A stretch of 64,000 nt of DNA from the IMG/VR virus record IMGVR_UViG_2778261375_000003. One strand, 5' to 3'. The translations under genes were made by a program, and so were the position numbers. Below are positions 1-20,830 of this stretch, piece by piece (position 1 is the stretch's first letter; every line of letters begins with the position of its first letter). Origin of the DNA: a virus. Its lineage: Duplodnaviria > Heunggongvirae > Uroviricota > Caudoviricetes. Under the pieces are notes generated by a model, which was not told the DNA's origin, did no database searches, and worked only from the letters and a program-made list of their open reading frames with translations.

Positions 1-5
1 GGTTT

Positions 6-1388
6 ATGACCTCGCTGAAATCGCTCGGTGAAATGGCCGGGATGGCGCGGGACAAAATCGGATCGAATCTTGCGGACGGACTGGCGGGGCAGATTGATAA
101 CCTGCGCAAAAAGATAATTGAAAATTTTCCCAAAATTGAAGTCACCATCACAAAGGTCATAAAGGGGATCCTCTGGCTGGGTGAGATAGTCGGGCGGGTA
201 GCATTTCGGATAGTCGATGGTGTCGGAGATATCATCGAGTGGTGGGGGAAACTGGATGCCGAAACGAAAACCCTGATAGAGGTTATCGGCGGTCTGGTTG
301 TCGCCATGCGGATACTTAACTCTACTTTCTGGATGTCACCTATAGGGCTGATTACCGGTCTGATCGTGGCTCTCGGTCTCTTGTGGGAAGACTACAAAAC
401 ATGGAAAGAAGGCGGTAACAGTCTTATCGACTGGGAAAAATGGCAACCGGCAATAGATAAAGCGAAGGATGCGATCACCTGGCTTCGTGACCACCTTCTG
501 GAACTAAAAGATGGTGTTGGCGGCTGGCAAAATGCACTGGAAATCCTTGGTACATTCATCGCGGGTGTCTGGGTATCCAGGGTTCTGGGGGCTTTCGGGA
601 AAATATCAGGTTTGCCGGTCCCGCCGTGGTTAAAAGGCTGGATGGCTTATGCTGCGTATTTGTACTCTGATCGCGAAAATATTGGTGCCAGTGCGAAGTC
701 ATCCTGGGATTACACGAAACAAAATATTGGAGATTCATTGCGCTGGCTTGGCATTGATACCGATTTTGGTCGTAATCCTCATACCGTAAAAGGCGCAAAT
801 ATTCAGTCAGATATTCCAGGTGCTGAGCCGGAACAATATGCACAGGCTACGAAACGAGGAGAACGGAATAACAATCCGGGAAACCTTAATTTTGCTGGTC
901 AGGCAGGGGCTTCTCTTGAACGCCCGGGCGGGCGATTTGCCAGATTTGAAACTGCCTTTGATGGATTACGGGCTCTTGCTCGTCAGTTAATGCTGTACGC
1001 CGGACGGGGAATAAACAGTGTGGAGAAAATTATCTCTACCTGGGCACCTGCGTCTGATAATAACAACACAACAGCGTATATCAGGGCTGTATCGCAACGA
1101 CTGGGAGTGGATCCCCGGGCTGCCCTGAATATGAGCGATCCGCAAACCATGTCAGCATTGATGAGCAGCATTATCCAGCATGAGAATGGAAGAAATATCT
1201 ATTCTCGAGAGCTGATTAATAAGGCTGCCGTGGCGGGAATTAGTGGCAAAGTGACAGAGGTTAACCAGCAAAATACCTACCACATTTACGGTGGCGGAGA
1301 TCCGCACGCTGTCGGTAATGAGGTTGCACGTCGGCAACAGTCTGCAAATGCTCAGGTCATGCGAAGTAATCAGGTGAGGGTGGGTTAG
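6..1388 (+). CDS. phage tail protein (tape-measure or DNA-circulation-like), probably 5'-truncated at window edge
   Basis: Reading frame is open to the window start; hydrophobic segments then a soluble C-terminal region; stop overlaps next start (TAGTG); sits directly upstream of coupled baseplate genes. Confidence 0.45.
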   Translation: MTSLKSLGEMAGMARDKIGSNLADGLAGQIDNLRKKIIENFPKIEVTITKVIKGILWLGEIVGRVAFRIVDGVGDIIEWWGKLDAETKTLIEVIGGLVVAMRILNSTFWMSPIGLITGLIVALGLLWEDYKTWKEGGNSLIDWEKWQPAIDKAKDAITWLRDHLLELKDGVGGWQNALEILGTFIAGVWVSRVLGAFGKISGLPVPPWLKGWMAYAAYLYSDRENIGASAKSSWDYTKQNIGDSLRWLGIDTDFGRNPHTVKGANIQSDIPGAEPEQYAQATKRGERNNNPGNLNFAGQAGASLERPGGRFARFETAFDGLRALARQLMLYAGRGINSVEKIISTWAPASDNNNTTAYIRAVSQRLGVDPRAALNMSDPQTMSALMSSIIQHENGRNIYSRELINKAAVAGISGKVTEVNQQNTYHIYGGGDPHAVGNEVARRQQSANAQVMRSNQVRVG

Positions 1389-1975
1389 TGGATATTCTCT
1401 CTACACTTTTTCATCAGCAGAGCAGAAAAATAGGAATGATTGTTCCCAGTGTTGTTATTTCAGAGAAGCATACAGATATGCTTGAAATAACAGAGCATCC
1501 GGTAGAGGTCGGGGCCGCTGTCGCTGATCATGCCTATAAAAAACCGTCAGAAGTGGTGATGGAGGTTGGTTTCGCCGGTGGCGGCGCATTGCTGGATTTT
1601 GCCAGTAACCTGACGGCTACCAGCCTGCTCGGCCTGAGTCCTCAGCAGACGTATCAGGAGCTACTGGGTCTGCAGGAAAGCCGTATCCCCTTCGATGTGG
1701 TAACCGGTAAACGGCTGTACAGCAACATGTTGATCCGGGCGCTGGAAGTGACGACGGACAAGACAACCGAAAACGTCCTGTCCGCCGTCCTCACCCTGAG
1801 GGAGGTCATTATCTCCCGGACACAGCAGATTACCGTCGCGGATAAAACCAACATGAAGGAAGGGGCCAGCACGTCGGCGGTACAGAACAGCGGCAACAAA
1901 ACCACAAAGCCTCCAGATACTTCACTGCTGAAAAGCATCACGGGTAACGTGGCGTCATTACTGGGGGGCGGCTAA
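1388..1975 (+). CDS. tail-module protein, function unknown
   Basis: 195-aa ORF translationally coupled on both sides (TAGTG, TAATG) inside the tail operon. Confidence 0.4.
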   Translation: MDILSTLFHQQSRKIGMIVPSVVISEKHTDMLEITEHPVEVGAAVADHAYKKPSEVVMEVGFAGGGALLDFASNLTATSLLGLSPQQTYQELLGLQESRIPFDVVTGKRLYSNMLIRALEVTTDKTTENVLSAVLTLREVIISRTQQITVADKTNMKEGASTSAVQNSGNKTTKPPDTSLLKSITGNVASLLGGG

Positions 1976-2277
1976 TGACAATTCAGGAAATTCCGCTGAC
2001 AGCGGACAACCAGCAGTTCTGCATCGTCCTGGGTGGTGTCACCTGGCGGATTAGCATCATATGGCGCGATCTGTACTGGATTATGGACCTGCAGAACGAC
2101 AGAGGGGAGCCGGTAATCTCCGGTATTCCTCTCGTCACTGGTGCTGACCTGCTGGCGCAGTACGCCTGTATGGGGCTTGGTTTTAAGCTGGTGGTGGTCT
2201 GTGATGACAACACACAGGATTACCCCACAAAAACTGACCTGGGCGGTCGCAGCCATTTACTGGTATCAACGGAGTAA
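1975..2277 (+). CDS. hypothetical tail-module protein
   Basis: 100-aa ORF coupled to flanking tail genes; no recognisable motif. Confidence 0.35.
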   Translation: MTIQEIPLTADNQQFCIVLGGVTWRISIIWRDLYWIMDLQNDRGEPVISGIPLVTGADLLAQYACMGLGFKLVVVCDDNTQDYPTKTDLGGRSHLLVSTE

Positions 2278-2279
2278 GC

Positions 2280-3347
2280 ATGTCACAGAACTGGATGAGA
2301 CATTTCGAGCTGCAGCTTGTGGACGGGAACGGTCAGGGAATTGAGCTAAGTGATTTCAAAGTCACCTTTACGATCGACTGGTTCAACATCAGCAGCGCGT
2401 CCCGGGTAGGGACTATCAAAATTTATAACCTCTCGGCAGATACTGTGAACCGAATTACCGGGCAAGAGTTTTCGAAAGTGCGTCTGATTGCCGGTTACGA
2501 CGGTATCGCGCCGGAGGTGTCAGCAAGCGACGTCGGGACAGTGCGGGAAGTTGACGCGGCGGACGTGGGCCAGAGTGATGGTCGCAACTACGGACTGATT
2601 TTCAGCGGTGAAATTCGCTACTCGGTTACAGGAAAAGACAGTCCGGTTGATTCCTACGTCCTGATTCAGGCAGCAGATACTGATCTGGCTTTTGCCACCA
2701 GTATAACCTCACAGACGCTGGCTGCCGGTTACACGGTCGCTGATGTAAACCGTGCGCTGATGAAAGACTTCGAAGCCAAAGGCGCGACCGAAGGCCTGAC
2801 GCCTGAAATGCCTGCTACTGTATTCCCCCGGGGGCGGGTACTCTTTGGCATGACGCGGCATCTAATGGATAACGTAGCCGGGCAATGTGGCGCAACATGG
2901 CAATTCGTGGATGGTCAGCGCCAGATGGTGGCGAATAACGAATATGTTCATGAAGCGATTGTGCTCAACAGCGCTACCGGGCTTATTGGCATGCCGCAGC
3001 AGACTATCGGTAACGGCGTAAACGTCCGCGCGCTTATTAATCCGAACATCCGGGTTAACGGACTTATTCAGCTGGATCAGGCTTCCGTGTATCGTACCGC
3101 CTTGTCGAACAACGATATCGCGATGGCCGGTGGGCAGATCACTGACCAGAACACGGACGGAAATATTACGCTAAGCGGCACCACATCGCAGCCTGCCAGC
3201 ATCGCAACGGATGGCGTTTATATTGTGCGCGGGATTATGTACACTGGCGACACAAGGGGCCAGGCGTGGTACATGGATATGATGTGCGAAGCGCGCGGTG
3301 CGGCGGATCTTCGTTCGGCGTCGTCTTTACAGCGTGAGGTAGGATAG
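2280..3347 (+). CDS. baseplate hub-like protein (Mu P / P2 gpD position)
   Basis: 355-aa ORF at the position preceding the spike gene in Mu-like order N-P-V-W-J-I-fibre; assignment by synteny only. Confidence 0.45.
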   Translation: MSQNWMRHFELQLVDGNGQGIELSDFKVTFTIDWFNISSASRVGTIKIYNLSADTVNRITGQEFSKVRLIAGYDGIAPEVSASDVGTVREVDAADVGQSDGRNYGLIFSGEIRYSVTGKDSPVDSYVLIQAADTDLAFATSITSQTLAAGYTVADVNRALMKDFEAKGATEGLTPEMPATVFPRGRVLFGMTRHLMDNVAGQCGATWQFVDGQRQMVANNEYVHEAIVLNSATGLIGMPQQTIGNGVNVRALINPNIRVNGLIQLDQASVYRTALSNNDIAMAGGQITDQNTDGNITLSGTTSQPASIATDGVYIVRGIMYTGDTRGQAWYMDMMCEARGAADLRSASSLQREVG

Positions 3348-3700
3348 TGAAAAAGTGGATTGTTATTGGACTCTGTTTCCTTCCGGGGTTCGCATTTGCT
3401 GCGAATCCTGGCGGTGTCACGCTTCAGTGTGGTGGCTACAAATTAGAGTTGATTCCTGATTCATTGTTCAGGATTAATGGTGAGACAGTTACCTCCCAGA
3501 AAATCAAAACGCTCGGCAACGGTAATGGAATGAAGGCGGATATGGGGCTTATGCCAGCCAAAGACGGTAACAATTACGGTTTCGAGTTCATTCGCCGTCC
3601 GGGTACCGAAACGCGATTCCTGAATGTCCAGCTTCTGCAGAACAGCATGGATGCGCCGAAAATCATCGGATCTTTCCCTTGTAAAAAAGTGGCTGGGTGA
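3347..3700 (+). CDS. secreted/periplasmic protein with N-terminal signal peptide (moron-like)
   Basis: N-terminus MKKWIVIGLCFLPGFAFAANP looks like a cleavable signal peptide; start overlaps hub stop; not a standard baseplate component. Confidence 0.5.
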   Translation: MKKWIVIGLCFLPGFAFAANPGGVTLQCGGYKLELIPDSLFRINGETVTSQKIKTLGNGNGMKADMGLMPAKDGNNYGFEFIRRPGTETRFLNVQLLQNSMDAPKIIGSFPCKKVAG

Positions 3701-3849
3701 AGGTAACCTGAAATTCGTAACGCCTGAAAAACAACAAAATGTGCTCTAAAAACTGTTGTTTTTTGAGACGAGCGATTACACTGCACTGACTTTTTGATGG
3801 TGGATTGCCATCGATATGCTACTTCATTAAAGCCAGGAATAACTAAAAC

Positions 3850-4581
3850 ATGAGTTTAGCGCAGCCAAAATCAGGAGAACTGTTAGATCTTCTGACTCCT
3901 TCATTAACTAAGGGTGAAAACCTTCTGAGTGAGTTTGAAATCCATCGAATCATTCGTGAAGCGAAGAAACTACCTGAACGTTATCAGGGGCTATCAATTG
4001 AAGGCTTAGCTAAGCTTGTTCTTGGTGAAATAGATGAAGGATGTTCACTCTGTGAGCGGGGGTTGAGAATAGCGCCTAACGATCCAGTTTCTTTTTGTAA
4101 CTATACGATTGCGCTGCGTAACTTAGGTTTGCATGCTCGCCAGTATGTGATGATTCAGAAAGCATCTGATTCACTTAATCCAACGATATTGGCTGAGGTT
4201 GCTACAATTTCTGCATACTGGGTTGATATCGATTTGCTTGAAAAGGTGATGCCGATGCTAACTGCAATGGAAGTACCGCGCCCTGAAGATATGGGCAAAT
4301 GGTATGACACGCTCAATTATCTGCATACCCAAAAAGATCATGCTCAGGAGCTAAAAACTATTGGGCGGCTCATGATGAACGTTGCAGAAAAGTACCGCGC
4401 TCGTCTTGCTGGCGCTCATGCTTTTTATGTAATGTCAGAACTTGATACGCTGTTCGTTGAAGTCAAAACAGACGATCCAGTGCTTCTTTCGCAGATGAAT
4501 AATGCCTTGGCTGATGAGATTATTATTGCGGGGCTTGCGGATTCAGAATGCGTCGGATGCTTTGAAGCCGGGGAACTCTAA
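3850..4581 (+). CDS. hypothetical helical protein (cassette gene 1)
   Basis: 243-aa ORF after a 150-bp AT-rich intergenic region; stop overlaps next start (TAATG); no motif I can name. Confidence 0.55.
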   Translation: MSLAQPKSGELLDLLTPSLTKGENLLSEFEIHRIIREAKKLPERYQGLSIEGLAKLVLGEIDEGCSLCERGLRIAPNDPVSFCNYTIALRNLGLHARQYVMIQKASDSLNPTILAEVATISAYWVDIDLLEKVMPMLTAMEVPRPEDMGKWYDTLNYLHTQKDHAQELKTIGRLMMNVAEKYRARLAGAHAFYVMSELDTLFVEVKTDDPVLLSQMNNALADEIIIAGLADSECVGCFEAGEL

Positions 4582-5009
4582 TGTCGGTTGAGCATACCTG
4601 TTTTCTTGAATTGGCTAAGCATTCCCTGGCTCTAAACGGTGAGATGTGGACGAGAAATGCTATTAGCCGAGCATACTATGGTATGTACCATTCCGCCTTA
4701 CGGATCACCAACAATCTGGTACCGACCGCTACACAAGATGGTGAAAAACTAAAAGGTGGAGTTCACATGCGAGTCTATACGGCCTTTTGTAGTGGTGAGG
4801 CAGCTGCACTTAACGATGTTGATGTTAACGCAGTAAAGAAAATCGGCGTTAAACTGAAAATGACGCATGCCCAACGTGTTAATTCTGATTACAAGCTTGA
4901 GCGGAAAATCAACCGGATTACCGCGAGAAGTGTAATTCTGGATGCGGAAGAGGTCGATGCAATCGTTAATCAATTACTGAAGATTGGTGATGACTCGTTA
5001 ACTGCATAA
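4581..5009 (+). CDS. hypothetical protein with R-x6-H (RAYYGMYH) HEPN-like motif (cassette gene 2)
   Basis: 142-aa ORF coupled to gene 1; Arg-x6-His inside an aromatic-rich helix; followed by a strong intrinsic terminator. Confidence 0.55.
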   Translation: MSVEHTCFLELAKHSLALNGEMWTRNAISRAYYGMYHSALRITNNLVPTATQDGEKLKGGVHMRVYTAFCSGEAAALNDVDVNAVKKIGVKLKMTHAQRVNSDYKLERKINRITARSVILDAEEVDAIVNQLLKIGDDSLTA

Positions 5010-5029
5010 GCTGAAATTTCTCAAAATTC

Positions 5030-5056
5030 AAACCCGCCACTTGGCGGGTTTTTTGC
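5030..5056 (+). terminator. rho-independent terminator
   Basis: Perfect hairpin ACCCGCCA-CTT-TGGCGGGT followed by a T-run, 23 nt after the stop at 5009. Confidence 0.7.
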
Positions 5057-5073
5057 TTTCTGGAGCCTACTAA

Positions 5074-5826
5074 ATGGCAGTATCTGACCAGACCCGCAGC
5101 GGCGACCTTGCCGAAACATTTAAATCTGAACGGGAAACAACAAAGAACCAGATCCGTGTCGCCTTGCCTGGCATTGTTCAGTCATTCGCTCCTGATGCGG
5201 TGACGGCGGTTGTACAGCCTGCTATCCGTTACGTTGAAATTGATAACGACGGCAACCGCATTACCAAAAATTACCCATTGCTGGTGGATGTGCCAGTGGT
5301 ATTCCCGCGTGGCGGAGGCTGTACGCTAACGTTTCCAGTTAAAGCCGGTGATGAATGTTTGGTGATTTTTGCCGATCGTTGTATTGATTTCTGGTGGCAG
5401 AGTGGCGGGATACAGGAGCCGGTCGATGACAGAATGCATGATTTATCGGATGCGTTTTGTATTGTCGGTCCCCAGTCGCAGGCAAGGAAGATTAGCGGTA
5501 TTAATACCAGTGCCACACAGTTGCGTAGTGATGACGGCAGCACCTATTTTGAGCTTAATCCTGATACCAGGAAAATTAAAATTGTCGCTCCGGGGGGCCT
5601 TGATGTGGTTGCCCCTCTGGCTGATTTTTCTGAGAAAGTAACCATTCATGGCCTGTTAACCTGGATGGGAGGCATGGTGGGGTCTGTTGTTTCTGGTGTG
5701 GCTTCAAAAATCACTGGTGCTGTTGAGTTTTTGGGTAGCGTGAAGGCTAACGGCAAGCCAATCGATGATACGCACACTCATGGTGGTGTTCAGCGCGGTG
5801 GAAGCAATACCGACGGAGTAAAATGA
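5074..5826 (+). CDS. baseplate spike protein (gpV / Mu gp45-like)
   Basis: OB-fold-like N-terminal region and C-terminal HTHGG motif typical of V-type spikes; first gene of a coupled V-W-J-I block. Confidence 0.6.
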   Translation: MAVSDQTRSGDLAETFKSERETTKNQIRVALPGIVQSFAPDAVTAVVQPAIRYVEIDNDGNRITKNYPLLVDVPVVFPRGGGCTLTFPVKAGDECLVIFADRCIDFWWQSGGIQEPVDDRMHDLSDAFCIVGPQSQARKISGINTSATQLRSDDGSTYFELNPDTRKIKIVAPGGLDVVAPLADFSEKVTIHGLLTWMGGMVGSVVSGVASKITGAVEFLGSVKANGKPIDDTHTHGGVQRGGSNTDGVK

Positions 5827-6179
5827 TGCGATACAGACGTGAAGACGCCGATGGCGATTACACCTTTGGCAGCGGTGATGACACCTGGCTGATTAACTCA
5901 CCGGAGGCCGTGGCGCAGGCGGTAAAAACGCGATTCGAATTGTGGTATGGGCAATGGTTTCTCGACACCACCGAGGGGACTCCGTGGATCCAGTCCGTAC
6001 TCGGTAAGCAGAAGCCGGAAACCTACAACCTAGCGATCAGAAAACGCATTCTGGAAACGCAGGGCGTTAAATCAATCCTCTCTTTCAATACGACGGTGGA
6101 TACCACGACCCGACGTGTCATGTTTTCCGCTGAAATCGACACTCTCTATGGAATAACGACTGTTACATCGGAGGCGTAA
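5823..6179 (+). CDS. baseplate protein (W / gp25 position)
   Basis: 118-aa ORF overlapping V stop (ATGA) and J start (TAATG); assignment by position. Confidence 0.45.
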   Translation: MMRYRREDADGDYTFGSGDDTWLINSPEAVAQAVKTRFELWYGQWFLDTTEGTPWIQSVLGKQKPETYNLAIRKRILETQGVKSILSFNTTVDTTTRRVMFSAEIDTLYGITTVTSEA

Positions 6180-7378
6180 TGGCTCTGAACCTTGATTCTC
6201 TCGGTTTATCTGCAAAGGTAACCGCGGAGGGGATCAGTGCGCCTGATTATCAGACGATACTCAGCACCCTGATTAGCTATTTTCAGCAGATTTATGGCAG
6301 TGATGCCTACCTCGAACCGGACAGCAAAGACGGCCAGATGGTGGCTCTGATGGCGCTGGCGATTCATGATGCCAATAATATGGCGATAACTGTCTACAAC
6401 TGTTTTTCACCGGCAACCGGCTATGGGGCTGCACTGACCAGTAACGTGAAAATAAATGGTATTTCACGTAAAGGCGCGACGAATTCTACGGTTGATTTGC
6501 TTCTTACAGGAACTGCCGGGGCAACCATCATTAATGGCAGCGTGAAAGACAGTAATAATGTGATATGGCGTTTGCCTGCTTCAGTGGTGGTCGGCGTGGA
6601 TGGTACAGTGATGGTGACCGCAACATGTTCCGTCAGTGGTGCAGTGGCGGCGCTGGCTGGAACTATCACTGAAATTAATACGCCAACCCGTGGCTGGATT
6701 TCGGTAACCAATCCTGCTGCAGCTACTGTAGGCACTCCAGCAGAAACTGATGCTGAGTTACGTATCCGCCAGTCGCAAAGTGTTGCGTTGCCATCAATAA
6801 CCCCATTTGAAGCACTGGATGGTGCTGTTTCTAATGTTGCCGGTGTAACCCGCCACAAACTCTATGAAAACGATACTGGTTCGGAGGACGGTAACGGGTT
6901 ACCGCCACACTCTGTTGCTGTAATTGTGGATGGTGGTGATGTGACGGATATTGCTCAGGCTATCAGAGGGAATAAAGGCCAGGGGACAGCCACTCACGGT
7001 ACAACATCCGTTACGGTTCTGGATAAATACGGCAATCCCCATGTAATCAAATTCTCGCGTTCCAGTGATGTACCTGTTTATGCCCGGATTAAATTAAAAG
7101 TTTTTACGGGTTATACCTCACAGATAGGGCAGCAGATCCAGCAGGCTATTTCCGACTATATCAATAGTCTGATGATTGGTGATTCGGTCCTTTTAAGTCG
7201 CATTTACTCACCGGCGAATCTTGGCGTGGTGAGTGGCGGGAATGCACGCTATTACGATATTCAGGAACTGACGATTGGGAAATCCCCGGGGGCTTTGTCG
7301 TCATCAAACATTGATATCAGATACAACGAATCTGCGTCCTGTACCCCGGAAAATATCGTTATAACGGTGGAGTCATGA
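6179..7378 (+). CDS. baseplate J-like protein
   Basis: 399-aa ORF at the J position, coupled to W and I. Confidence 0.55.
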   Translation: MALNLDSLGLSAKVTAEGISAPDYQTILSTLISYFQQIYGSDAYLEPDSKDGQMVALMALAIHDANNMAITVYNCFSPATGYGAALTSNVKINGISRKGATNSTVDLLLTGTAGATIINGSVKDSNNVIWRLPASVVVGVDGTVMVTATCSVSGAVAALAGTITEINTPTRGWISVTNPAAATVGTPAETDAELRIRQSQSVALPSITPFEALDGAVSNVAGVTRHKLYENDTGSEDGNGLPPHSVAVIVDGGDVTDIAQAIRGNKGQGTATHGTTSVTVLDKYGNPHVIKFSRSSDVPVYARIKLKVFTGYTSQIGQQIQQAISDYINSLMIGDSVLLSRIYSPANLGVVSGGNARYYDIQELTIGKSPGALSSSNIDIRYNESASCTPENIVITVES

Positions 7379-8055
7379 GCAAATACACCGAACTAATCAC
7401 AAACTACCACGCCACCAAACCTAAATTTCTTGCACATGTTGATCTGATGACCCGGCCGCTTATTGATGTTGCGGCTGCCACCAGAGGGCTGATTACTGCA
7501 TTTGATATTGACTCTGCGGTTGGTGTGCAACTTGACATTCTGGGATTGTGGATCGGACGTAGCCGTGTTGTCAGCCAGCCTATCTCAGGTGTCTATTTCA
7601 GCTGGGATACCGACGGGCTTGGATATGATCAGGGGGTATGGCAGGGACCATACGATCCTGATTCCGGATACATGTACCTCAGCGATGAAACTTATCGTGT
7701 CATTCTTAAAGCGAAGATTGCGATTAATAACTGGGACGGACGGAATGATTCGCTTCCGGCAATTCTTGACGCTGCAACAGCAGGATCCGGGCTGCGAATG
7801 CAGATAGTCGATAACCAGGACATGACGATATCGGTCTGGGTCTTTCCTGATACTGATATTTCAGATGTATCGCGTGAGTTAATTGCGGCAATTAAACAGG
7901 GGTATCTCACAGTAAAAGTCGCCGGGGTATGGGCGGGTGGCATTGAAACACCTTCGGTGGAAACCCCATCGGAAGGCTCAAAATTTTTTGGTTTTGATAT
8001 GGATAACGAATTCATCAGTGGTTTTGATGTAGGAGCATGGGGAGTATTACTCTGA
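7375..8055 (+). CDS. tail protein I-like (baseplate wedge)
   Basis: 226-aa ORF at the I position; stop overlaps fibre start (TGATG). Confidence 0.5.
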
Positions 8056-8828
8056 TGGCGAAAAATGACTTTAAAGCGTTTGCAACGGATCGAAATGCCA
8101 ATGTTATATCGCAGGAGGAATGGGAAGCGTTGCCCGCGCTTTTATCCGGATTTACAGCAGGGAAAGCCTCCAGTGCGCAAGTCAATAAGGTTATTCGGCA
8201 GGCCAGCTTTATTGCTGCAGCTCTGGCCCAGTTTGTAAGTGATAAAACGCAACGGGATGTGCTTGATAATGGTGATCTGCCCGGTTTTGTTGAATTGCTG
8301 GGATCGGGGTTTGCTGTTGAATACCTGAGCCGCAAGAATCCGTTTGGTGATATCAAATCGGATGGCACGGTGAAAACGGCTCTCGAAAACCTTGGTTTGG
8401 GAGAAGGTTCGGCATTACCCGTTGGTGTGCCTGTCCCGTGGCCTTCCGCCACTCCGCCAACAGGCTGGCTAAAATGCAATGGTGCGGCTTTTTCTGCTGA
8501 AGAATACCCGGAACTGGCAAAGGTTTATCCGACAAATAAATTGCCTGATTTACGCGGTGAATTTATTCGTGGATGGGATGATGGGCGTGGGGTGGATTCC
8601 TCTCGTGGTTTGTTGACATCTCAAGACCATTTATTTGCTTCTCATGGGCACTGGTTTGACAAGTACTATGCGCTAACAGGTTTTGATACAACGGGAGGTC
8701 GGTTCGTAGTTACGGCTGATGCTTTCGGGGAACTTATTAAGGCAAATTCAATTTCTACGGTATCGGTTGGTGGTTCTGAAACCCGGCCGCGCAACGTCGC
8801 ATTTAACTATATCGTGAGGGCAGCCTGA
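8055..8828 (+). CDS. short tail fibre protein with tail-collar-like domain
   Basis: Start taken at ATG 8055 ([12 protein letters not shown]...); motif [22 protein letters not shown] resembles the phage tail collar domain. Confidence 0.6.
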
Positions 8829-9430
8829 TGAATAAAGCCGTATTAAATAACGAACTCATTGCCATAAAAGCGGGAGACATTACCATTTATAATTATGATG
8901 GTGAAACGCGGGAATATATTTCCACATCAACTGAATATCTTGCGGTTGGCGTCGGTATACCGGCATGCTCCTGTTTAGATGCTCCTGACTCATATAAAGC
9001 TGGTTATGCAATCTGCCGTTCTGCAGATTTTAACTCATGGGTATATGTGCCAGACCACCGTGGTGAAACGGTATATAGCACTGAAACAGGAGAATCAAAA
9101 GAAATCACAGCTCCGGGTGATTACCCTGAAAATACAACCACTATCGCCCCGTTAACGCCATTCGATAAATGGGATGGTGAGAAATGGGTGACCGATACTG
9201 AGGCACAGCATTGCGCCGCAGTAGACGCGGCAGAAGCACAGCGTCAGTCACTGATTGATACTGCAATGGCTTCCATCAGTCTGATTCAACTGAAATTGCA
9301 GGCCGGGCGGAAGCTGACGCAGGCAGAAACCACCCGACTTAACGCTGTGCTGGATTACATTGACGCGGTGACGGCAACAGATACCAGCACCGCGCCGGAT
9401 GTCATCTGGCCTGAACTGCCGGAGGCGTAG
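8828..9430 (+). CDS. tail fibre assembly chaperone
   Basis: 200-aa ORF coupled to the fibre gene (TGATG); C-terminus ...DYIDAVTATDTSTAPDVIWPELP shared with the convergent chaperone. Confidence 0.6.
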   Translation: MNKAVLNNELIAIKAGDITIYNYDGETREYISTSTEYLAVGVGIPACSCLDAPDSYKAGYAICRSADFNSWVYVPDHRGETVYSTETGESKEITAPGDYPENTTTIAPLTPFDKWDGEKWVTDTEAQHCAAVDAAEAQRQSLIDTAMASISLIQLKLQAGRKLTQAETTRLNAVLDYIDAVTATDTSTAPDVIWPELPEA

Positions 9431-9842
9431 GCCATTCAATATCTGGCGCACCGGAAGTATCGACCAGTTCCAGTGCGTCCAGGTAATCCAGCCACAAATT
9501 ATATTGCGCCAGTTCGTCACCTTTCAGACGACCAATAGCCGCTTTACCAGGCCATTGTTTACTGTTCATATAATCGTTGGCCTGATTAATCAATTGCTGC
9601 TTCTCCAATTCGGCTGCAGCAATTTGTTCCTCATGTGTTGGTGGTGGAATTTCGGACCATGCAGGAAAACCATTTTCTCCAGCGATACGGATTTTTCCTT
9701 TCGGCGGTAATCCGGAAAACTCAATATACACTTGCTCATCAACTTCAACAGCATCATCTGGCCATGAGTCAGCTTGAGTGTAATCCTCTTTCATCCCCAG
9801 CGGATAGAAAGAGTTTGTAGTCGCGGAATATATGTAATTCAT
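9402..9842 (-). CDS. tail fibre assembly chaperone (U-like)
   Basis: 146-aa ORF directly downstream of the long fibre gene; C-terminus ...DYLDALELVDTSGAPDIEWPTPP; 3' end overlaps the + strand chaperone by 29 bp. Confidence 0.6.
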   Translation of the reverse strand: MNYIYSATTNSFYPLGMKEDYTQADSWPDDAVEVDEQVYIEFSGLPPKGKIRIAGENGFPAWSEIPPPTHEEQIAAAELEKQQLINQANDYMNSKQWPGKAAIGRLKGDELAQYNLWLDYLDALELVDTSGAPDIEWPTPPAVQAR

Positions 9843-9863
9843 TTTTCACTCCATATAGCTAAA

Positions 9864-11798
9864 TTAACAGCCTAACGCTAAAAATGAAGCGCCGAGGCCA
9901 GGAGTACTGGCTCTGGATATAAATTTAACCGGGTCGGGACTAAAACCTGCACAGGCAATATAACCAACAGCCCCGCTATCTGGTGTGTAGTCTTGTGAGA
10001 CCAAAACACGCAGACATCTGTTTGGAAATGCAATCGGGAAATGGGTTACTACATCCTGTGCAATGCCTGGTGCGCCGATTGAGCCCCACTGAAGAATAAA
10101 ACCTGATGGTAATTTTTGATATCCAGTACCTGAAACAGAAAGCGTGAAGCTACCCATATCAGGTATCTGATTCGCCCCTGTCCCTACATTCCTTTTAGCC
10201 GCTTCTCCCAAACCAAGGTATTGGATAACGGCCAGTGTGCTTGTTTTAGCCAGAATATCGCGACCGACTGACGTTAAATCAGTCTGAGCTACCGTATCCT
10301 TACCAGTGAAATAAGGCAGTTTGTTTGCACCAGTCGCAAGGGCAGCGAGAGCGGTTAAAGTTGCATCCAGAGGCTGTTTGCCTGCCAGCGCATTTGTCAT
10401 TGTTGTCGCAAAGTTCGGGTCATTGCCAAGTGCTGCGGCAAGCTCATTCAGGGTATCAAGAGCTTCTGGTGATGAACCAACCAATGCGGATATGGCAGCT
10501 CTTACATAAGCGGTCGTAGCAATCTGCGTGTTATTCGTACCCTGTGCAGCGGTAGGCGCAGTAGGGACACCCGTTAATGCAGGGCTTGCCAAAGGCGCTT
10601 TGAGAGCCAAGGCATTGTTGATAGTTGTGCTGTAATTCGGGTCGTTATTGATCGCAGCAGCTATTTCTTTAAGCGTATCCAGTGTGCCAGGCGCACCGTT
10701 GATAAGTGCAGTTATAGCTGCCTTAACAAAGGCTGTATTTGCGATCTGCGTGTTATTCGTACCCTGTGCAGCGGTAGGCGCAGTAGGTATTCCCGTTAAT
10801 GCAGGACTTGCTAAAGGAGCTTTAAGAGCCAGAGCATTGTTGATAGTTGTGCTGAAATTCGGGTCGTTATTGATCGCAGCAGCTATTTCTTTAAGCGTAT
10901 CCAGTGTGCCAGGTGCACCGTTGATAAGTGCCGTTATAGCTGCCTTAACAAAGGCTGTATTTGCGATCTGCGTGCTATTTGTACCTTGCGCTGCCGTCGG
11001 CGCGGTTGGCGTTCCTGTCAGACTCGGGCTTTCTATTGGCGCTTTGGTATCAGCCAGATCTTTTATAGACTTAACAGCTTTAGGGGTAGCCGCCATTGTT
11101 TCGCTGTCGCTGTTAGTTGCGCTACTGAGCTGAACTAATCCCTTTTGCGTTGTGCTTGCATCCTGTGCCGTATACTTGCTTTTCGCCAGATCGTAGGCTT
11201 TTTTAACTGCCAGCGAACTTGCAGCAACATCACTTCTGGTACTGGTTACAGAGTCTGAAATATCAATGCCGATCGAGCGGTTGATACGCTCGGATGTATC
11301 AATCATCTCCTGGGTAATGGCAGATACACTAGCAGGGATATTCACCGTACAAACAAGCAGCTCCCCATCTCCTAACTGATATGAATCGGTATAGGTTCTG
11401 GCAACAAATTCAGCCGCATGAATATGTGACGCGGTATTCACCTGGTAGGTATCTTCTCCAAGGAGGTATCTTCCCTTCAGCACAATTGCATATTTCTTGC
11501 CTGCACTAAGTGCAAGAGAAATATCCTTACGTTGCTGAATAGTTACCTGGTAAAATTCACCAATATCCACCGACGCCGCGCCTGCGGTTTTATCACCATC
11601 CACTGAGGTAATTAACAGGTTCATCCCACCGCCAGGCTTAGGTAAGAAACCGGCATAAAATCCCGGGTCAACAATCCCCCTGAATTTTCGGTTTAGCGCG
11701 GCTGACAGATATGGTTCGTGGTATTGCACATCGGCCACCAGAGCCAACGACTCGGATGATGGGTAAGTAACCGATGTAACAACTGTAACGTCATTCAT
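9864..11798 (-). CDS. tail fibre protein (S-like, long fibre)
   Basis: Start taken at MNDVTVV (ATG about 11798, AAGGA upstream); conserved [21 protein letters not shown] fibre motif; three tandem copies of a roughly 74-aa repeat ([30 protein letters not shown]...). Confidence 0.75.
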
Positions 11799-11809
11799 CA
11801 AGCATATCC

Positions 11810-12244
11810 TTATGCTGTAGTCGTGTTTATGGCCATAACTGCGGTATATGTTTTGCCCACATACAGCGAGTCTTCCTGGACACAAATAATGGCGATTGGC
11901 TTGTTCTCGTTATCCAGAACAACCAGAGTGTTGAATGGGTAGTTTTTCCCTTCCTGCAACTGGCTTTGATCAAGGTCCATTCGGACAGTAATTATCCCGC
12001 CTGAGTAGGTTGGGACGAGGTTGATGGTGCAAAATTGACTGGTCAGTTCTGCCAGTTCGAAAGCCTTTGGCAGTTCTCCAATCTCATAAGTGCCATCTCC
12101 TTTCTTAGTAACCAGCGAACTGGTACCGAAAACGGCCTTGCTGATTAAAAATCGAGAGCCTTTGTTAATGGACGATTCAGCGCGCCGCTGATAGTAATAG
12201 TCCAACAACTGACTCTTATAGAGGTTTGTTGAGACGTCAGACAT
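11810..12244 (-). CDS. tail/baseplate-associated protein
   Basis: 144-aa ORF immediately upstream of the fibre gene on the same strand. Confidence 0.4.
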
Positions 12245-12322
12245 GATTTTCCCTAATCAATGTTGTGAAGCCTCATTGTAAGATAAGTAACTTGTCACCC
12301 CGCCCTGCGGACGGGGTGATTA

Positions 12323-13162
12323 TCAGGCATCACTATCCAGCAGCAAATCATCTGCGCGGGTGCGATCAAACGTAGGCGTTGCTTTCACAATAGTGCCGCC
12401 CGGCGTTGCAGTGATCGGAGCGCTAATCGACGTAACTCCAGTAAGCGAAGTTGTATCCGAAGTTTCAAACCAGCAGTACGCTTTTTCGGTATCAGAAATC
12501 TCGTTCAAAGTGATCATGTCGGCGTGTTCATTTACAACAACCGACAAATAGAGCGTAAGCCCATCAAACACTATATGCAGTGGCAGTAGAGGCTTTACGA
12601 ACTGATTAAACTTTCTGAGAATTTCTTCTGTAATTGCGGACTGATCTATCGTGCCAGTAATCCCCATTGTCCGGGCCAGGTCGTTTATGGGAATACTGAT
12701 CATCCCTCTGGAAGTCAGAAACATCTCGCCGAATGTGCCGCCGGTAGTCTCCAGTGTGCTTTCAGGTATTAGAACCGTGCCATAGGGATGACGCTCAAGG
12801 TCCACCGGTGCATATATCGGATCCCATAAAACAGAAATACCGTTAAATTCGCGGTAAATTGTCTGGTTTATAGGGCGTTCAGTCCCCTTAAAGTGAATCT
12901 CATCAAGACGCTGTTGTAACAACATCGGAACGGAAGATGAGTTCGACGTTCTGATAGTAAAGAACTGGCCAAGTTCATTTGTCCTGGTCTCCAGATCCTC
13001 CTTGCTCATGGAAAAAATAGACTTCCGGTTGGTAATTCGCTCCAACCATGGGTCAACAAAGGTATCCATCATTGACTGAACCAAATCAGCCAATGATTTA
13101 TAGAGCAATGACTTTTGCTTAGCTGATGTAAGCCGGTTATTAAACCAGGAACGCTGCATCAC
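12323..13162 (-). CDS. baseplate wedge protein
   Basis: 279-aa ORF whose start overlaps the upstream J-like gene; position only. Confidence 0.4.
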   Translation of the reverse strand: MMQRSWFNNRLTSAKQKSLLYKSLADLVQSMMDTFVDPWLERITNRKSIFSMSKEDLETRTNELGQFFTIRTSNSSSVPMLLQQRLDEIHFKGTERPINQTIYREFNGISVLWDPIYAPVDLERHPYGTVLIPESTLETTGGTFGEMFLTSRGMISIPINDLARTMGITGTIDQSAITEEILRKFNQFVKPLLPLHIVFDGLTLYLSVVVNEHADMITLNEISDTEKAYCWFETSDTTSLTGVTSISAPITATPGGTIVKATPTFDRTRADDLLLDSDA

Positions 13163-14592
13163 TCCTCCTCATACGAAATATTAAAGGTGGAGTTTTCTGT
13201 ATCCAGATAAACGAAATCGTAAAAGCCGTTGGACTCATTCCACTCGACAAATTCCAGATAAAAGTCGCGGAAATAACCCAGCGTTTCGATAAATGCCCAA
13301 ACGTCTTTTTTCTTGATTAGGATGTACTTGCCAACACGGTTCGGATCAAAGAAAGTTGAGTCACGCCCAAATTTTGTTTCCAGTGCCGACTTCAGCTCAT
13401 CAGTCACGTTCTCAATGGTCAGGCTTGCCGATATCCGCCCGGTGATGGTGATCTTAAAGGGTAGTTTTCTGACCTCTTTATACGAGAATTTCTTGTTCAA
13501 CTCATTCGGCACCTTCTTAAAGGCAGCCAGGATCATTTCTTCAAGCTCTGACTGGCTTTTGTTTGGATGCCATCCTGAAATAAATATCTTATTGATATTC
13601 CGAACATTATAAGCACCATCTAATTTCTCTTGCTGGCCTTCGCCCCATGCCTTTACCCAGGACAGTCCCGGGATGTTACGCACCAGAAAATACGTATAGT
13701 CCCCGCCCCATACGACCTGATCATCATAGGCAAGGTAATATTGTGCACGATTACGTGTGATCTCCGTTGTTTCGGCATCGGTACCTGCGGTTATGGGTGT
13801 CATTGTCTTAACTGAAATCAAATTAGCTAAATTAGCCGCAGAATCGACAGGCGTCAGATTTTGGCCAGCAACCAAGGTTATATCTCCGTTGGTGCACCAT
13901 ACCTTAAGTGTAATGGTCGAGCCTTCTGGCGGTATTTGCCCAATTAGCCCATCACCGAATCGAACCCCCAACTGCTCGGATGGTTTATAAAACTCAACGT
14001 AGACCTGGCTTTTACTACCAGCTAACCGGAACATAGTGCTGGAAGACCACTGCGTGGTCTTACCATCGGTCGTCACGAATACTTCCAGCTTATAGCAGAC
14101 AGCAGTGAGAGCCTTTGATAACACGACTTCCAGAAATTCTTTGGCTGCCGTAACGGTATATGTCACCTCCTGGATTTCCAACTGTGCCACTTCTACCGTA
14201 CCGGTGCCGTCAACCAACCTGCATACATCCATAGTTATGTAAGGGTACTGGTCGTCAGATATTAAAGGCATGTTTTTGGGGATTACCGCTGGAGCATCTT
14301 CACTTGTGGCGGTGATCTCAATCATCCCCGATGACGGTGTTGGCTTGGTACCAACGTAACTATTCGTTTCTGCCGCTGCCAGGATAGAGGAACGCCGCGT
14401 CGCGGTCGATATAAAGCCTTCAGCCAGCGCCGCATCGGCATACTGAAAGCACCTGTAGACAATCTGGGTAATAAACAATGTCAGCATCGAGACAAATTGA
14501 GAGCCGACAAACTTCGACCAGAATGAATCTTTCTCGACAAGCTCTTCAAACTCTGCACGAATACTGTCTTTAGTCGGTGTTGTTTTACTCAT
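13159..14592 (-). CDS. baseplate J-like protein
   Basis: 477-aa ORF between gp25-like and wedge genes, coupled on both sides. Confidence 0.45.
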   Translation of the reverse strand: MSKTTPTKDSIRAEFEELVEKDSFWSKFVGSQFVSMLTLFITQIVYRCFQYADAALAEGFISTATRRSSILAAAETNSYVGTKPTPSSGMIEITATSEDAPAVIPKNMPLISDDQYPYITMDVCRLVDGTGTVEVAQLEIQEVTYTVTAAKEFLEVVLSKALTAVCYKLEVFVTTDGKTTQWSSSTMFRLAGSKSQVYVEFYKPSEQLGVRFGDGLIGQIPPEGSTITLKVWCTNGDITLVAGQNLTPVDSAANLANLISVKTMTPITAGTDAETTEITRNRAQYYLAYDDQVVWGGDYTYFLVRNIPGLSWVKAWGEGQQEKLDGAYNVRNINKIFISGWHPNKSQSELEEMILAAFKKVPNELNKKFSYKEVRKLPFKITITGRISASLTIENVTDELKSALETKFGRDSTFFDPNRVGKYILIKKKDVWAFIETLGYFRDFYLEFVEWNESNGFYDFVYLDTENSTFNISYEEE

Positions 14593-14948
14593 AGCACCAC
14601 GTCCTGTGTGATAGTTATATCCCTGATACGAATGGATATTTTCAACTTATCAAAAGCATCTCCCTCGGCTACTGACAAGCCAGAAATCGGTATGTCAGGT
14701 AAATCTACCGTCAGTTTTTGCAACAGCATTGCCTCAACCGCAATTTGAACATGCGACAAGTTGGTCGGTTCGTGTTTAAACTGCGGTAAAACATTGCCCC
14801 ATGACGGATCCCCGTATACCTCACCCTGATAAGTGTTTAGCCACTCATATAAACGAGCGCCCCAGGCCTCCTCCTGGGACTCATACGTTTTTACGCCGGA
14901 TAACTCCAGCGTCAGCAAAGGATCAATTTCGTTATTGTTGGCCATCAA
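14589..14948 (-). CDS. baseplate wedge protein (gp25 / W-like)
   Basis: 119-aa ORF; GEVYGDPSWGNVLPQF resembles the gp25/GPW core; overlaps the tape-measure stop. Confidence 0.5.
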   Translation of the reverse strand: MMANNNEIDPLLTLELSGVKTYESQEEAWGARLYEWLNTYQGEVYGDPSWGNVLPQFKHEPTNLSHVQIAVEAMLLQKLTVDLPDIPISGLSVAEGDAFDKLKISIRIRDITITQDVVL

Positions 14949-17900
14949 TCAACTCTCGCGTAGTCATTCATCAACGGATCATCAATTGACAGTGGTACCG
15001 TGCGCATAACGCCCGGCTGAGGCGTGCTGACCTTTACGACAGTTCCCTGGCCTTTCGCCGAGTCTTTGGTGTGCTCTTCAATCCTGGCAAGCAATGAGGC
15101 CATCTGCGCAAACAGCCGCTTCGTTTCACCATCAAGTGAAACGGTATTATCAGCCAACTGCATTGTCGGCTTGGCACCGGAGCCGCCAAGGTCACTAATA
15201 ACCTGTCCGTCTATCTGCATACGACCGGTTGGTTGCTGCAAATCGTTGGCGGCAGTCGTCACCTTGGACGTGGAGGCTGGTTCAGGCGCATTATTTTTCC
15301 GCATCCCCGGCGAGTTGCGGAGTTTATCGAATAGTCCATCAATCTCCATTTGTGCGCCGAGTTGGTCAAAGTAACTTGAGTTGTTGGCCACCGGACGCGC
15401 CTCTTCAACTGGCATCGGAGTATCAACATACACATTGCCAGCTGCTGTTGCGGTCCCCTTCCCTCGTGCACGTTCTTCGAGCGTTCCCTGAACGACTTCC
15501 CGACGCATACCCCGGCCATTCATGAATTTGTTGACCAGATCGTTAACGCCAACAGCATTGCCGATTTTGTCTACCAGACCGCCTTTCTCAAACGGGCTAT
15601 CACCAGGGGTAAATGCCAGGCCAGTAGACTGATCGATAACAGCGTTATCAGGCAGTGGTCCCCTCACTCCATATTGCGCCCCACCCTGTGCTCCTGCTCC
15701 AGGTGTATAGATTTCACCACCTAAATAGCGAGCACGATGAGTATTGACCTTGATCGCGTACTCACGGTTTTCTTTGGATAAGTCACCTGTGCCTTTTTTC
15801 CACTTATTGATAGTGCCAAACCCAGCGTTATATGCAGTGATGGCCTCGTTTAAGTCTCCATTGGCTTGCTTCAGATACTTGCTCATGAGAAGAGCCGCAG
15901 CTTCTGCCGATTTCACAGGATCAAACGATTCACCTTCAGCTAAGCCAGTCTCTTCACGAGCAATCCCCGTGAACTGAAACATTCCCAGAGCACCGGTTTG
16001 GGATTTTGCATACGGATTACCACCAGATTCAGTTGCAGCAATCGCGTAAAGAGTGCCTTCTGGAAGACCGTATTTATTCTCTAGTTCGGCAAAATACGGA
16101 GCCAACTTATCGAGATTTGCCTTACCTTCAGCGCCAAGACTTCCGACTTTTACATCTAAGTTGCCATTGTTGTAAGTATCCGCAGCTTTCTGAATGTCAT
16201 TCCTGGTGCCAGTAGTATTAAGCGACGATGATGATGAGCTATTTTGACCAATAGCATTATCAATTTTCTGCAACGCGCTATTGCCCGTTTCTACGGCATT
16301 TGCATTGATAATCTGATTGGCAGTTTCTTTAACTGTTTTATTGCTATCTTTCGCCGTATCTAGGGATGCATTTACAACACGAGTGACAATATTAGCCTTT
16401 TTAGGGGTATATTCAGTCTTAGGAGCATTGTCCTCCTGACTTTCTTTAGCTGGTGTTTTTAATTCAGGTGTAACCTCTTTCGCATCCGCTTTGTTGACTA
16501 GCTTTGATGCAACCCAGGCCACAGGGGTGCTCTGAACAGCGGCATCTGCAACCTCACCTGAAAGCTCTTTTGCGGCACTCCATAGATTACTGCCAGCTTC
16601 TTTAATGTATTTCCCTGGGTTCTTAATGAAATCAATTGCACTATCAATTGCATCACTGAAAACCTGTTTCAGGTTATCGACAGTAAAGAAGTTTTTGATG
16701 GCGTCTAATTTTTCGTTCAGGTTCTTTGTTGTGTCACTGAACCATGCTGAAATAGCATCACCAATCTTTGCAGTATAATCACTAAATGTCGTGGATATAG
16801 TATCACCAAGGTTAGAAATATATGTTTCTAAATTGGTAATCCCACTATCAATGGCCTGGGCAATACTTTCCGTCGAAAATGATTGCAACATATTGCCGAT
16901 ATCCTCAAATCCAAGTGATTTGAGAACGCCGCCAATGGCACTGCTAATACCAGATACCAGTCCTCCCATATCGAGAACGTTAGCCAGTGTATAAGCCGCT
17001 TTTTGCTGAAAAGATGGATCTTCCCCATCCTTAAGCCCAAAGGTCCGACGTTGTGCTTCTGTATCATTCCAACCGGTTACCGCATCATAGATACCTCCAG
17101 CCACCGTGCCGACTAGCGGAATTGCGCGTAAAGCCCCCTTTGCAAGAGCCTTAACACCTAGTTTCCCCAATCCCTTAGTTGCAAGTTTTCCGGCACCGCG
17201 AGTAGCCAATTCGCCAGCTTCTTTGGCAGCAGCTTTTTTCCCACCAAAGCCCAATAAGCTTGCAACTTTTTTTATACCTAAAGCGCCTAGTGCCATCGAG
17301 CCAACTTTCTTTAGTACCCCACGGCCAAAAATAAGGGAAGCAATACCACCGGCCCCCTTCCCTAACAGGCTAAATAGTTTGGACAGCAAGCCGCCCTTCT
17401 TTTTCCCGGTGTTTTTGGCTATCTGATCAAGGGCGCTGAGAATCTTGTCATTGCCCTCTTTAATTTCGCTGGTCTGCTCCTGAAGTTCCTGAACCGTCCG
17501 TTTTTGGGTGTTAACCTGAACGACATCGGCACTATTTTGCGATTTACGCCTAAAAAAACCTTTTCTACGGCTGTTATCGTCATTGCCACGAATCACATCG
17601 GCAATAGACTTTCTGGCACCATTAAGCGATCCACCAACTTCTTTTGATATCCCGCCAAGCTCCTTCCCTGCTGCCCACAATGGACCAGCAACGGCATAAC
17701 CTAACGCATCGACGGCACGAGTCTCTGAAGGGTTACCTATGCCTTCAGCTACTTTTGACAGTTTTTTTAATAAACCTGATTCAGCATTTAGACGCTCATC
17801 ATCCTCTTTGCGCCTGGCCTTTTCAGCACGTTCAGCACGGGCATCTTCCGCTGCGGCCTTACTCCCTGACTTTCCAATAAAACGACCACGCGCATCGCGT

Positions 17901-18640
17901 TGGTTTTGGCTTTTTTGCGCACCGCCTTTTTGATCGAACATTTTGCGAGCGTGTTCGGCTGCTTCGGTCCGTTGTGCCTTTATATCCTCTGGTATAGCCT
18001 TCCTGCGTCGTTTTTTACCCTTTGGTGTAGTTGATTTGGCCTGCTGTTCCTGTTGAGCAATGCCCTCCTGAACTACACGAGAAACGTCCCCTAAATTAAG
18101 CCGTTTCATTGCATCAACAATAGGGTCTACTGATGGCGCATTGGCCACAAAGTCTGGCCGGGAATTTTCGATTGTTCGATTTAATGCCGACACACTGCGA
18201 GATACTGGGTCAACCGTTGCAACGCGTTCCCCTTTCAAATCACGATCGAGTTTGACCGTTTCTAACCGCTGTGCTTTAACATCCTCTGTTATTGCCTCTC
18301 TTCGTCTATTTGGGGGATTGTGCGCTGTTGGTGCAGCCTGCTGTTCACGGTTAGTGACTTTGTCCTCCCGTATACGAGAAACGTCCCCTAAATTAAGCCG
18401 TTTCATTGCGTCAACAATAGAGTCCACTGATGGCGCATTGGTCACAAAGTCAGGACGTGAATTTTCGATTGTGCGATTTAATGCCGACACACTGCGAGAG
18501 ACAGGATCAACAGTTGCAACTCGTTCCCCTTTCAAATCTTCAACAGCTTCCCGAATACCTGCAAGCTCTTCCAGCTCTTTCGCGCTGGCGGTTTCAACTG
18601 TCCTTATAACATCGTCAATATTGGCGTTTTTTCTTTCCAT
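14945..18640 (-). CDS. sit: tape-measure / injection protein with lytic transglycosylase domain (Sit-like)
   Basis: 1231 aa; SLT motif YAIAATESGGNPYAKSQTGALGMFQF; Gly/Lys-rich repeats; internal duplicated segment near the N-terminus. Confidence 0.7.
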   Translation of the reverse strand: MERKNANIDDVIRTVETASAKELEELAGIREAVEDLKGERVATVDPVSRSVSALNRTIENSRPDFVTNAPSVDSIVDAMKRLNLGDVSRIREDKVTNREQQAAPTAHNPPNRRREAITEDVKAQRLETVKLDRDLKGERVATVDPVSRSVSALNRTIENSRPDFVANAPSVDPIVDAMKRLNLGDVSRVVQEGIAQQEQQAKSTTPKGKKRRRKAIPEDIKAQRTEAAEHARKMFDQKGGAQKSQNQRDARGRFIGKSGSKAAAEDARAERAEKARRKEDDERLNAESGLLKKLSKVAEGIGNPSETRAVDALGYAVAGPLWAAGKELGGISKEVGGSLNGARKSIADVIRGNDDNSRRKGFFRRKSQNSADVVQVNTQKRTVQELQEQTSEIKEGNDKILSALDQIAKNTGKKKGGLLSKLFSLLGKGAGGIASLIFGRGVLKKVGSMALGALGIKKVASLLGFGGKKAAAKEAGELATRGAGKLATKGLGKLGVKALAKGALRAIPLVGTVAGGIYDAVTGWNDTEAQRRTFGLKDGEDPSFQQKAAYTLANVLDMGGLVSGISSAIGGVLKSLGFEDIGNMLQSFSTESIAQAIDSGITNLETYISNLGDTISTTFSDYTAKIGDAISAWFSDTTKNLNEKLDAIKNFFTVDNLKQVFSDAIDSAIDFIKNPGKYIKEAGSNLWSAAKELSGEVADAAVQSTPVAWVASKLVNKADAKEVTPELKTPAKESQEDNAPKTEYTPKKANIVTRVVNASLDTAKDSNKTVKETANQIINANAVETGNSALQKIDNAIGQNSSSSSSLNTTGTRNDIQKAADTYNNGNLDVKVGSLGAEGKANLDKLAPYFAELENKYGLPEGTLYAIAATESGGNPYAKSQTGALGMFQFTGIAREETGLAEGESFDPVKSAEAAALLMSKYLKQANGDLNEAITAYNAGFGTINKWKKGTGDLSKENREYAIKVNTHRARYLGGEIYTPGAGAQGGAQYGVRGPLPDNAVIDQSTGLAFTPGDSPFEKGGLVDKIGNAVGVNDLVNKFMNGRGMRREVVQGTLEERARGKGTATAAGNVYVDTPMPVEEARPVANNSSYFDQLGAQMEIDGLFDKLRNSPGMRKNNAPEPASTSKVTTAANDLQQPTGRMQIDGQVISDLGGSGAKPTMQLADNTVSLDGETKRLFAQMASLLARIEEHTKDSAKGQGTVVKVSTPQPGVMRTVPLSIDDPLMNDYARVD

Positions 18641-18721
18641 GATCTTATCGCCTACCGTTTCGGTTTAAGTTTTTCTTCCAGTTTCTCCAACAGGAAAAAC
18701 GCATAGGATTCAGTAAGCCTT

Positions 18722-19603: not shown

Positions 19604-19617
19604 CCTTGCTCCTTAAT

Positions 19618-20229: not shown

Positions 20230-20239
20230 ATCAGCCCCC

Positions 20240-20830
<591 letters not shown>

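Follow-up and report, generated by a model that had tools for sequence, protein, structure and literature searches.

The 64,000-nucleotide stretch of phage DNA analyzed here (IMG/VR record IMGVR_UViG_2778261375_000003; the whole stretch is called the window below) is part of a 271,099-base-pair (bp) Escherichia coli contig, NOEJ01000003.1 (assembly GCA_002517405.1), on which record coordinates equal window coordinates plus 120,480. In the sequence as deposited, the genome of a P1-like phage-plasmid meets a different tailed prophage in the region 8387–10216. This region is a Din-family (Cin/Pin/Gin-type) invertible host-range cassette of the form Sv-U / U'-Sv', and it occurs on the contig in two copies. 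The best explanation, which we consider somewhat better than even, is that the inversion cassette is duplicated in a prophage and a co-resident P1-like element, and that the latter is mostly a free plasmid. We describe the cassette and its sites, then the layout of the contig, and then weigh the free state against physical integration.

The fiber cassette and its crossover sites

The region is built from convergent tail fiber and chaperone genes. On the + strand, the prophage tail fiber gene (8055–8828, 257 amino acids) consists of a constant part, Sc1 (8055–8391), and a variable part with a Collar domain, Sv (8394–8828), and it is followed by the gene for U, a 200-residue chaperone for Sv (8828–9430; Caudo_TAP, E = 5.5e-33). 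On the − strand lies the P1 tail fiber gene S (9864–11798, 644 amino acids), which contains Phage_fiber_2 repeats and is divided into a constant part, Sc (10217–11798), and a variable part with a Gp53-like_C domain, Sv' (9864–10214). The chaperone for Sv', U', is encoded on the same strand (9402–9842, 146 residues; Caudo_TAP, E = 8.5e-37). The region therefore holds two alternative fiber tips in opposed orientation, each with its own chaperone: the Collar tip is paired with a Caudo_TAP protein on the + strand, and the Gp53-like_C tip with another on the − strand.

The cassette is delimited by two 26-bp crossover sites in inverted orientation, located as an inverted repeat and compared with the annotated cix sites of P1; a search for cix-like sites had been proposed in the original prediction, made earlier from the window sequence, and it was successful. 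Written as outer half, TT core and inner half, the left site, on the prophage fiber side, is CTCTCGAAAACC TT GGTTTGGGAGAA (8380–8405, + strand), and the right site, read on the − strand, is TTATCCAATACC TT GGTTTGGGAGAA (10203–10228). The core and the inner halves are identical between the two. The right site is the cixR of P1, which the P1 record (AF234172) annotates as TTATCCAATACC TT GGTTTAAGAGAA; the outer half matches cixR at 12 of 12 positions and the inner half at 10 of 12. The window had been described as free of inverted repeats, but 8383–8406 and 10202–10225 form an inverted repeat of 24 nucleotides that is 92% complementary. The 64 kb contain exactly two occurrences of its 18-nucleotide core, ACCTTGGTTTGGGAGAAG, one per strand, where 0.03 are expected, and no shuffle among 100 reached two.

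Both sites fall in the LGLGE codons at the boundary between the constant and variable parts of their fiber gene, and the core of the left site lies within a Leu codon of ...ENLGLGE... in the prophage fiber. Measured from core to core the cassette spans 1,830 bp (8387–10216), and flipping it in silico keeps both fibers in frame, the prophage fiber changing from 257 to 229 amino acids and S from 644 to 672. In Mu-like and P2-like prophages, cassettes of the same type adjoin a serine invertase gene, and both orientations are seen among related Mu-like prophages (loci L005 and L008 versus L010). The original prediction had noted that the gene topology mimics the Mu G and P1 C segments and had then dismissed an invertible segment; the resemblance is real, but the dismissal fails on the presence of cix-type sites in frame. 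Its statement that no invertase is present holds inside the window only, as two serine invertase genes flank the second cassette copy on the contig. No open reading frame beside the window copy gave a Resolvase match, in a scan that took in part of the reading frames of the window, and the window contains no enhancer-like sequence (best match, 36 of 72 positions). We regard the identification of the cassette as secure; it is a new sequence member of a well-known type of switch.

The genes for U and U' overlap tail-to-tail by 29 bp (9402–9430), and the two proteins have a C-terminal motif in common (38% identity over 72 amino acids, E = 1e-11), both as originally described. The overlap had also been taken for the junction of two tail systems. 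However, cassettes of unrelated Mu-like and P2-like prophages encode a protein identical to U' and have the 29-bp chaperone overlap as well. Because the same anatomy, overlap included, stands beside invertases elsewhere, convergent fiber-chaperone pairs are normal and not the scar of a fusion. The overlap and the common motif are native to the cassette, and the overlap as a recombination scar was ruled out. The possibility that P1-like plasmids natively carry the + strand module has a divided answer: they do carry its Sv-U part, from 8387 on, but not the left baseplate module. The exact U sequence is on record in this strain only, at two places on the contig and on one contig of a Logan assembly.

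The second copy and the layout of the contig

Nucleotide comparison by megablast shows that similarity switches across the region, from a prophage-type phage on the left to a P1-like phage on the right. Window 1–9665 is 97.9% identical to vB_EcoM-606R2, an induced E. coli prophage that carries the same cassette type adjoining an invertase. Window 10203–22000 is 100% identical to the P1-like phage phi456 and ~96–97% identical to P1, P7, SJ46 and RCS47, and matches to P1 start only at 10203. From this point to 64000, gene order follows that of P1-like genomes. The order extends to the genes for partition and the plasmid replicon, and the parB-parA-repA stretch is 98.2% identical to phi456. The open reading frame map and Pfam confirm the layout reported earlier, in which two distal-tail gene sets face each other. 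The join was also placed correctly inside homologous fiber and chaperone DNA, and its breakpoints are the crossover sites of the cassette.

The same cassette recurs 95,441 bp further right as a direct repeat (positions 9560–11389 of locus L015). The two copies are 100% identical over 1,830 bp, and identity stops exactly at the crossover cores. The gene order at the second copy is P1 darA-hdf-lydB-lydA, cin, a Collar fragment, U, U', a Gp53 fragment and a second invertase gene, which is followed by pphA-yebW-yebV-rsmF-yebT-yebS-msrC-proQ-prc. Both invertase genes are intact. The product of the first is 98% identical to P1 Cin, and the annotated enhancer is matched at 70 of 72 positions; the second, Pin-like invertase is 83% identical to Cin, with an enhancer match of 55 of 72. 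The site adjoining cin has the outer half of cixL (12 of 12 positions), and the site adjoining the second invertase is the prophage's own. All four crossover sites have the TT core in common and an identical inner half-site.

Excising the 95,441 bp in silico, by joining window 1–10216 to the sequence after the second copy, gives a product that a single alignment, running across the join, shows to be collinear with the E. coli CS6L chromosome. Its order is prophage, cassette, pinE, pphA and onwards, and the reciprocal product is collinear with P1-like plasmids. Since excision restores a native CS6L-type prophage and a P1-like plasmid, the contig has the form of the product of one reciprocal crossover in the cassette. 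Judged by sequence, its layout is exactly the one that a single crossover between the native prophage and a circular P1-like plasmid of ~95 kb, within the cassette common to both, would give. Both the prophage and the P1-like element appear to be whole. The cassette, its sites, its duplication and this topology are all read directly from the deposited record.

Free plasmid or cointegrate

We infer the physical state of the P1-like element, and the way in which the two copies became identical, from this layout and from comparison with other genomes. Two co-resident elements of the isolate, the prophage adjoining pphA and the P1-like phage-plasmid, would carry 100% identical cassettes, and the path of the contig leads from the prophage into the cassette, on through the complete P1 genome, then into the cassette a second time and out to the chromosome. 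Such a path could come from a single crossover in the cassette. It could equally come from an assembler traversing a loop, where a free circular plasmid and a chromosome have one exact repeat in common. A free plasmid and a prophage with one exact common repeat yield the same short-read assembly graph as a cointegrate. In the majority of cells, the P1-like element most likely exists free, as a plasmid. An equilibrium with a cointegrate, reversible and mediated by RecA, is the most that we would expect, and it seems rather unlikely to us that the element is physically integrated in most cells. As an account of the join, an assembly misjoin is in our view more likely.

In the Logan assembly of run SRR5336230, the 1,830-bp unit forms a contig by itself (SRR5336230_181, 0 mismatches); no other run on record has the U variant of this strain. 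This suggests that the data are short reads unable to span the 1,830-bp repeat. With what appear to be short reads only and a repeat of 1.83 kb, the choice of path in the assembly is therefore without read support. The Sc1-cassette-P1 S junction and the cin-cassette-pin junction were both searched for in 5,426 complete E. coli genomes, and neither query was covered to 80% at any place. P1-like DNA in complete E. coli genomes is on plasmids at 688 of 703 places and in chromosomes at the other 15. The complete genome of strain APEC20/16 contains a free P1-like plasmid (NZ_CP127299.1) and a Mu-like prophage (NZ_CP127297.1) with cassettes that are 99.2% identical over 1,888 bp; all 15 mismatches are central (alignment positions 725–1566), and both ends are identical. 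Near-identity of two cassettes therefore does not need integration, and this genome suggests recurrent cassette exchange between co-resident phages.

Several points weigh against a free plasmid. The submitters' contig crosses both copies of the repeat, at which many assemblers would break, and unreported long-range data such as mate pairs or long reads may exist that speak for a real cointegrate. The short-read-only nature of the assembly is deduced from a single Logan match, and the account of loop traversal in a de Bruijn graph is general knowledge of assembler behavior. Furthermore, the cassette is strain-specific, with a best match elsewhere of 97.2%, yet it is identical in both contexts. 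The prophage and the P1-like element must therefore have recombined within the lineage, and a cointegrate is plausible as a recombination intermediate.

If the cointegrate is real, homologous recombination is one way to make it: a RecA-mediated single crossover between the 1.83-kb cassettes would have integrated the whole plasmid and left the cassette as a direct repeat at both junctions, from which recombination between the repeats can re-excise the plasmid. The topology matches a single reciprocal crossover exactly, this is the state that the deposited contig draws, and 1,830 bp of perfect homology is well established as ample substrate for RecA. P1-like elements also do occur in chromosomes, both at the 15 of 703 places given above and in the 12 integrated P1-like regions reported by Pfeifer and Rocha (2024; PMC10879196). 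However, the free state gives the same assembly graph, short-read data do not resolve the repeat, neither junction is present in any complete genome examined (5,426 E. coli), and the free plasmid is ~50 times commoner in complete genomes. Overall, we consider this origin of the contig unlikely. Very unlikely, in our estimate, is a site-specific origin of the cointegrate, in which Cin or the prophage invertase carried out a rare intermolecular exchange between a cix site of P1 and the prophage site. Such a fusion would join the replicons exactly at the 2-bp core, and identity between the copies does end exactly at the cores, with four sites that have the TT core and the inner half-site in common and two intact invertase genes; low-frequency replicon fusion mediated by Cin is said to have been seen by Iida and colleagues in 1984. 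Yet homology stops at the cores anyway, so the breakpoints are uninformative on mechanism. Din-family invertases are also known to disfavor intermolecular reactions strongly, the identity of the two cassettes would be left unexplained, and a free plasmid would again give the same graph.

The original prediction had favored a P1-like backbone fused to a Mu/P2-like tail module, possibly by recombination within homologous chaperone or fiber sequence. To this reading, taken as a stable hybrid phage that acquired a foreign baseplate-fiber module through the chaperone genes, we give almost no credence. Two distal-tail gene sets do face each other in the window. However, nothing is missing from the P1 part, at whose far end, 95,441 bp away, a second junction leads into ordinary chromosome, and the left module runs on into a full prophage of which a native form without P1 exists. 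The breakpoints, moreover, are at the crossover sites and not within the chaperone genes, whose overlap belongs to the cassette. The second junction and the excision test, which restores the native prophage, refute the hybrid.

The two phages and related switches

The left element is a chromosomal contractile-tail prophage. Its distal tail and baseplate genes (6–8055, + strand) encode Dit-like, plug, spike, sheath initiator, Baseplate_J (6179–7378) and DUF2612 wedge (7375–8055) proteins, identified from open reading frames, Pfam and the 97.9% match to vB_EcoM-606R2, and the module also encodes a Pam3_gp18-like protein. It had been called a Mu/P2-like tail module, but its domain content (Dit-like, Pam3_gp18-like, DUF2612) matches neither, and the full set, with the sheath-initiator and Baseplate_J proteins, rules out a Mu-like or P2-like identity. 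The genes are collinear with the prophage adjoining pphA in CS6L. A related prophage in NZ_CM148343.1 (locus positions 7556–11606) adjoins torT instead of pphA and has the same fiber cassette without an invertase, with an XF1762-family gene after the Sv' fragment. Its switch is apparently frozen or dependent on an invertase supplied in trans.

On the right, the P1-like tail and baseplate operon (11810–21951, − strand) comprises R, gp16, bplA, pmgA, sit, pmgB, tub, pmgC and downstream genes and is 99.8% identical to phi456, with which it is collinear; the P1-type R itself, from the open reading frame map, lies at 11810–12244. Genes at 48910–50551 (− strand), which have a weak Phage_base_V match, had been read as a third spike/hub pair. 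They are ordinary P1 baseplate genes, 99–99.5% identical to those of P1-like phages, in which the homologues are annotated as baseplate hub and tail-stability protein, and they therefore belong to the one P1 tail. With the DNA native to P1, a third tail system at this place was ruled out. Within the constant part of S, a 222-bp tandem repeat (10522–11003; 2.2 copies, 92% identity) corresponds to the b1/b2 repeats annotated in P1, of which the copy number varies among P1-like elements.

Other differences among P1-like genomes were seen along the way. In phi456 (OR339795.1, locus positions 13874–17445), an 818-amino-acid gpS is followed by small open reading frames and lydA, and no cin, U or invertible segment is annotated, despite the identity to the window from 10203 on; phi456 looks like a P1-like phage with a lost or fixed switch. 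Just past repA, window 37921–38004 corresponds to an insertion point in phi456, where IS629-like transposase genes are found, and JL22 carries an ISEcp1-IS5-blaCTX-M-55 insertion of ~4 kb at the matching point; the window has neither. This position seems to be a hot-spot for insertions among P1-like plasmids. Window 25680–27505, in the repL/rlfA-rlfB neighborhood, does not align to phi456 and is low in G+C (0.367 at 26001–27000). It is probably a replaced accessory module.

The closest known system is the C segment of phage P1 with cin and the sites cixL and cixR, which was reportedly described by Iida and co-workers in 1982. Both are serine-invertase switches with 26-bp sites and a TT core. 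As in P1, gene S contains the right site at its ...YLGLGE... boundary, with an outer half identical to cixR, and the site adjoining cin on the second copy has the outer half of cixL, beside a Cin of 98% identity and an enhancer matched at 70 of 72 positions. In contrast to the 4.2-kb segment of P1, the cassette here is 1.8 kb long and lacks the long internal inverted repeats, its Sv and U content is unrelated to that of P1 itself, and cixL and cixR are, as drawn in the contig, on different copies 95 kb apart. The Mu G segment with gin and the e14 P segment with pin are alike in placing Sv-U / U'-Sv' within the segment while the constant part of the fiber stays beyond its ends; one invertase of the family can stand in for another, and cassettes are common to unrelated phages. 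Unlike Mu and e14, the resident prophage has a Dit-like/DUF2612 type of baseplate and adjoins pphA. Recombination within the homologous segments can join P1 and another phage. The hybrid MuhP1, which Toussaint and colleagues are said to have reported in 1978, is a replacement of a cassette, whereas a cointegrate of whole genomes is drawn here.

P1-like DNA inside a chromosome has precedents. For the integrated P1-like elements in their survey, Pfeifer and Rocha (2024; PMC10879196) proposed Cre-lox or transposable elements as routes of integration; a common inversion cassette is not among the routes that they describe, and here it is no more than a candidate route. One chromosomal example was inspected, an element adjoining yicL in E. 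coli strain 131 (NZ_CP093011.1; locus 11900–34380). Its S gene is truncated and no cix-like site was found at the break, so a different kind of event lies behind it. In GCA_900042775.1 (FCOZ01000006.1, record positions 214651–235403), a draft contig of 244 kb, which well exceeds the size of a P1 plasmid, carries P1-like genes. This may be another P1-like element that is drawn inside, or is truly inside, a larger replicon.

Finally, the two physical states would differ in how the switch works. In either of them, the prophage fiber reads Sc1-Sv with chaperone U, and P1 S reads Sc-Sv', for which U' is the chaperone. With a free P1-like element, prophage and plasmid would each have an invertase and an enhancer of their own beside the cassette and would switch normally. 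If it is integrated, the expressed copy would have two constant parts facing inward, and a flip of this copy would swap fiber tips between the two phages. With no enhancer in the window, inversion of the expressed copy would therefore be poor. Neither end of the other copy would be expressed, although both invertases and both enhancers flank it, and the plasmid could come free again by RecA recombination between the direct repeats of 1.83 kb.

It is doubtful, in our view, that the cointegrate is real and that a whole P1-like phage-plasmid lies inside the inversion cassette of an unrelated prophage as a two-headed switch. If it were, one copy would be read from both ends by the fiber genes of two phages, giving them complementary host ranges at any moment, and would be a natural case of a single switch serving two phages. 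It would also represent a natural route for phage-plasmid integration and for the transfer of host-range cassettes between phage families, and would add a route of integration for P1-like phage-plasmids beyond Cre-lox and insertion sequence (IS) elements. The junction is a repeat-mediated join of unproven physical reality, and it calls for caution, as an exact repeat common to a plasmid and a chromosome can appear as integration in a draft assembly. The secure finding is that two unrelated elements of one cell, a prophage and a P1-like phage-plasmid, have a strain-specific host-range cassette in common, without a single difference from core to core. It suggests that co-resident phages of different families actively exchange inversion cassettes, and APEC20/16 displays the same tendency.

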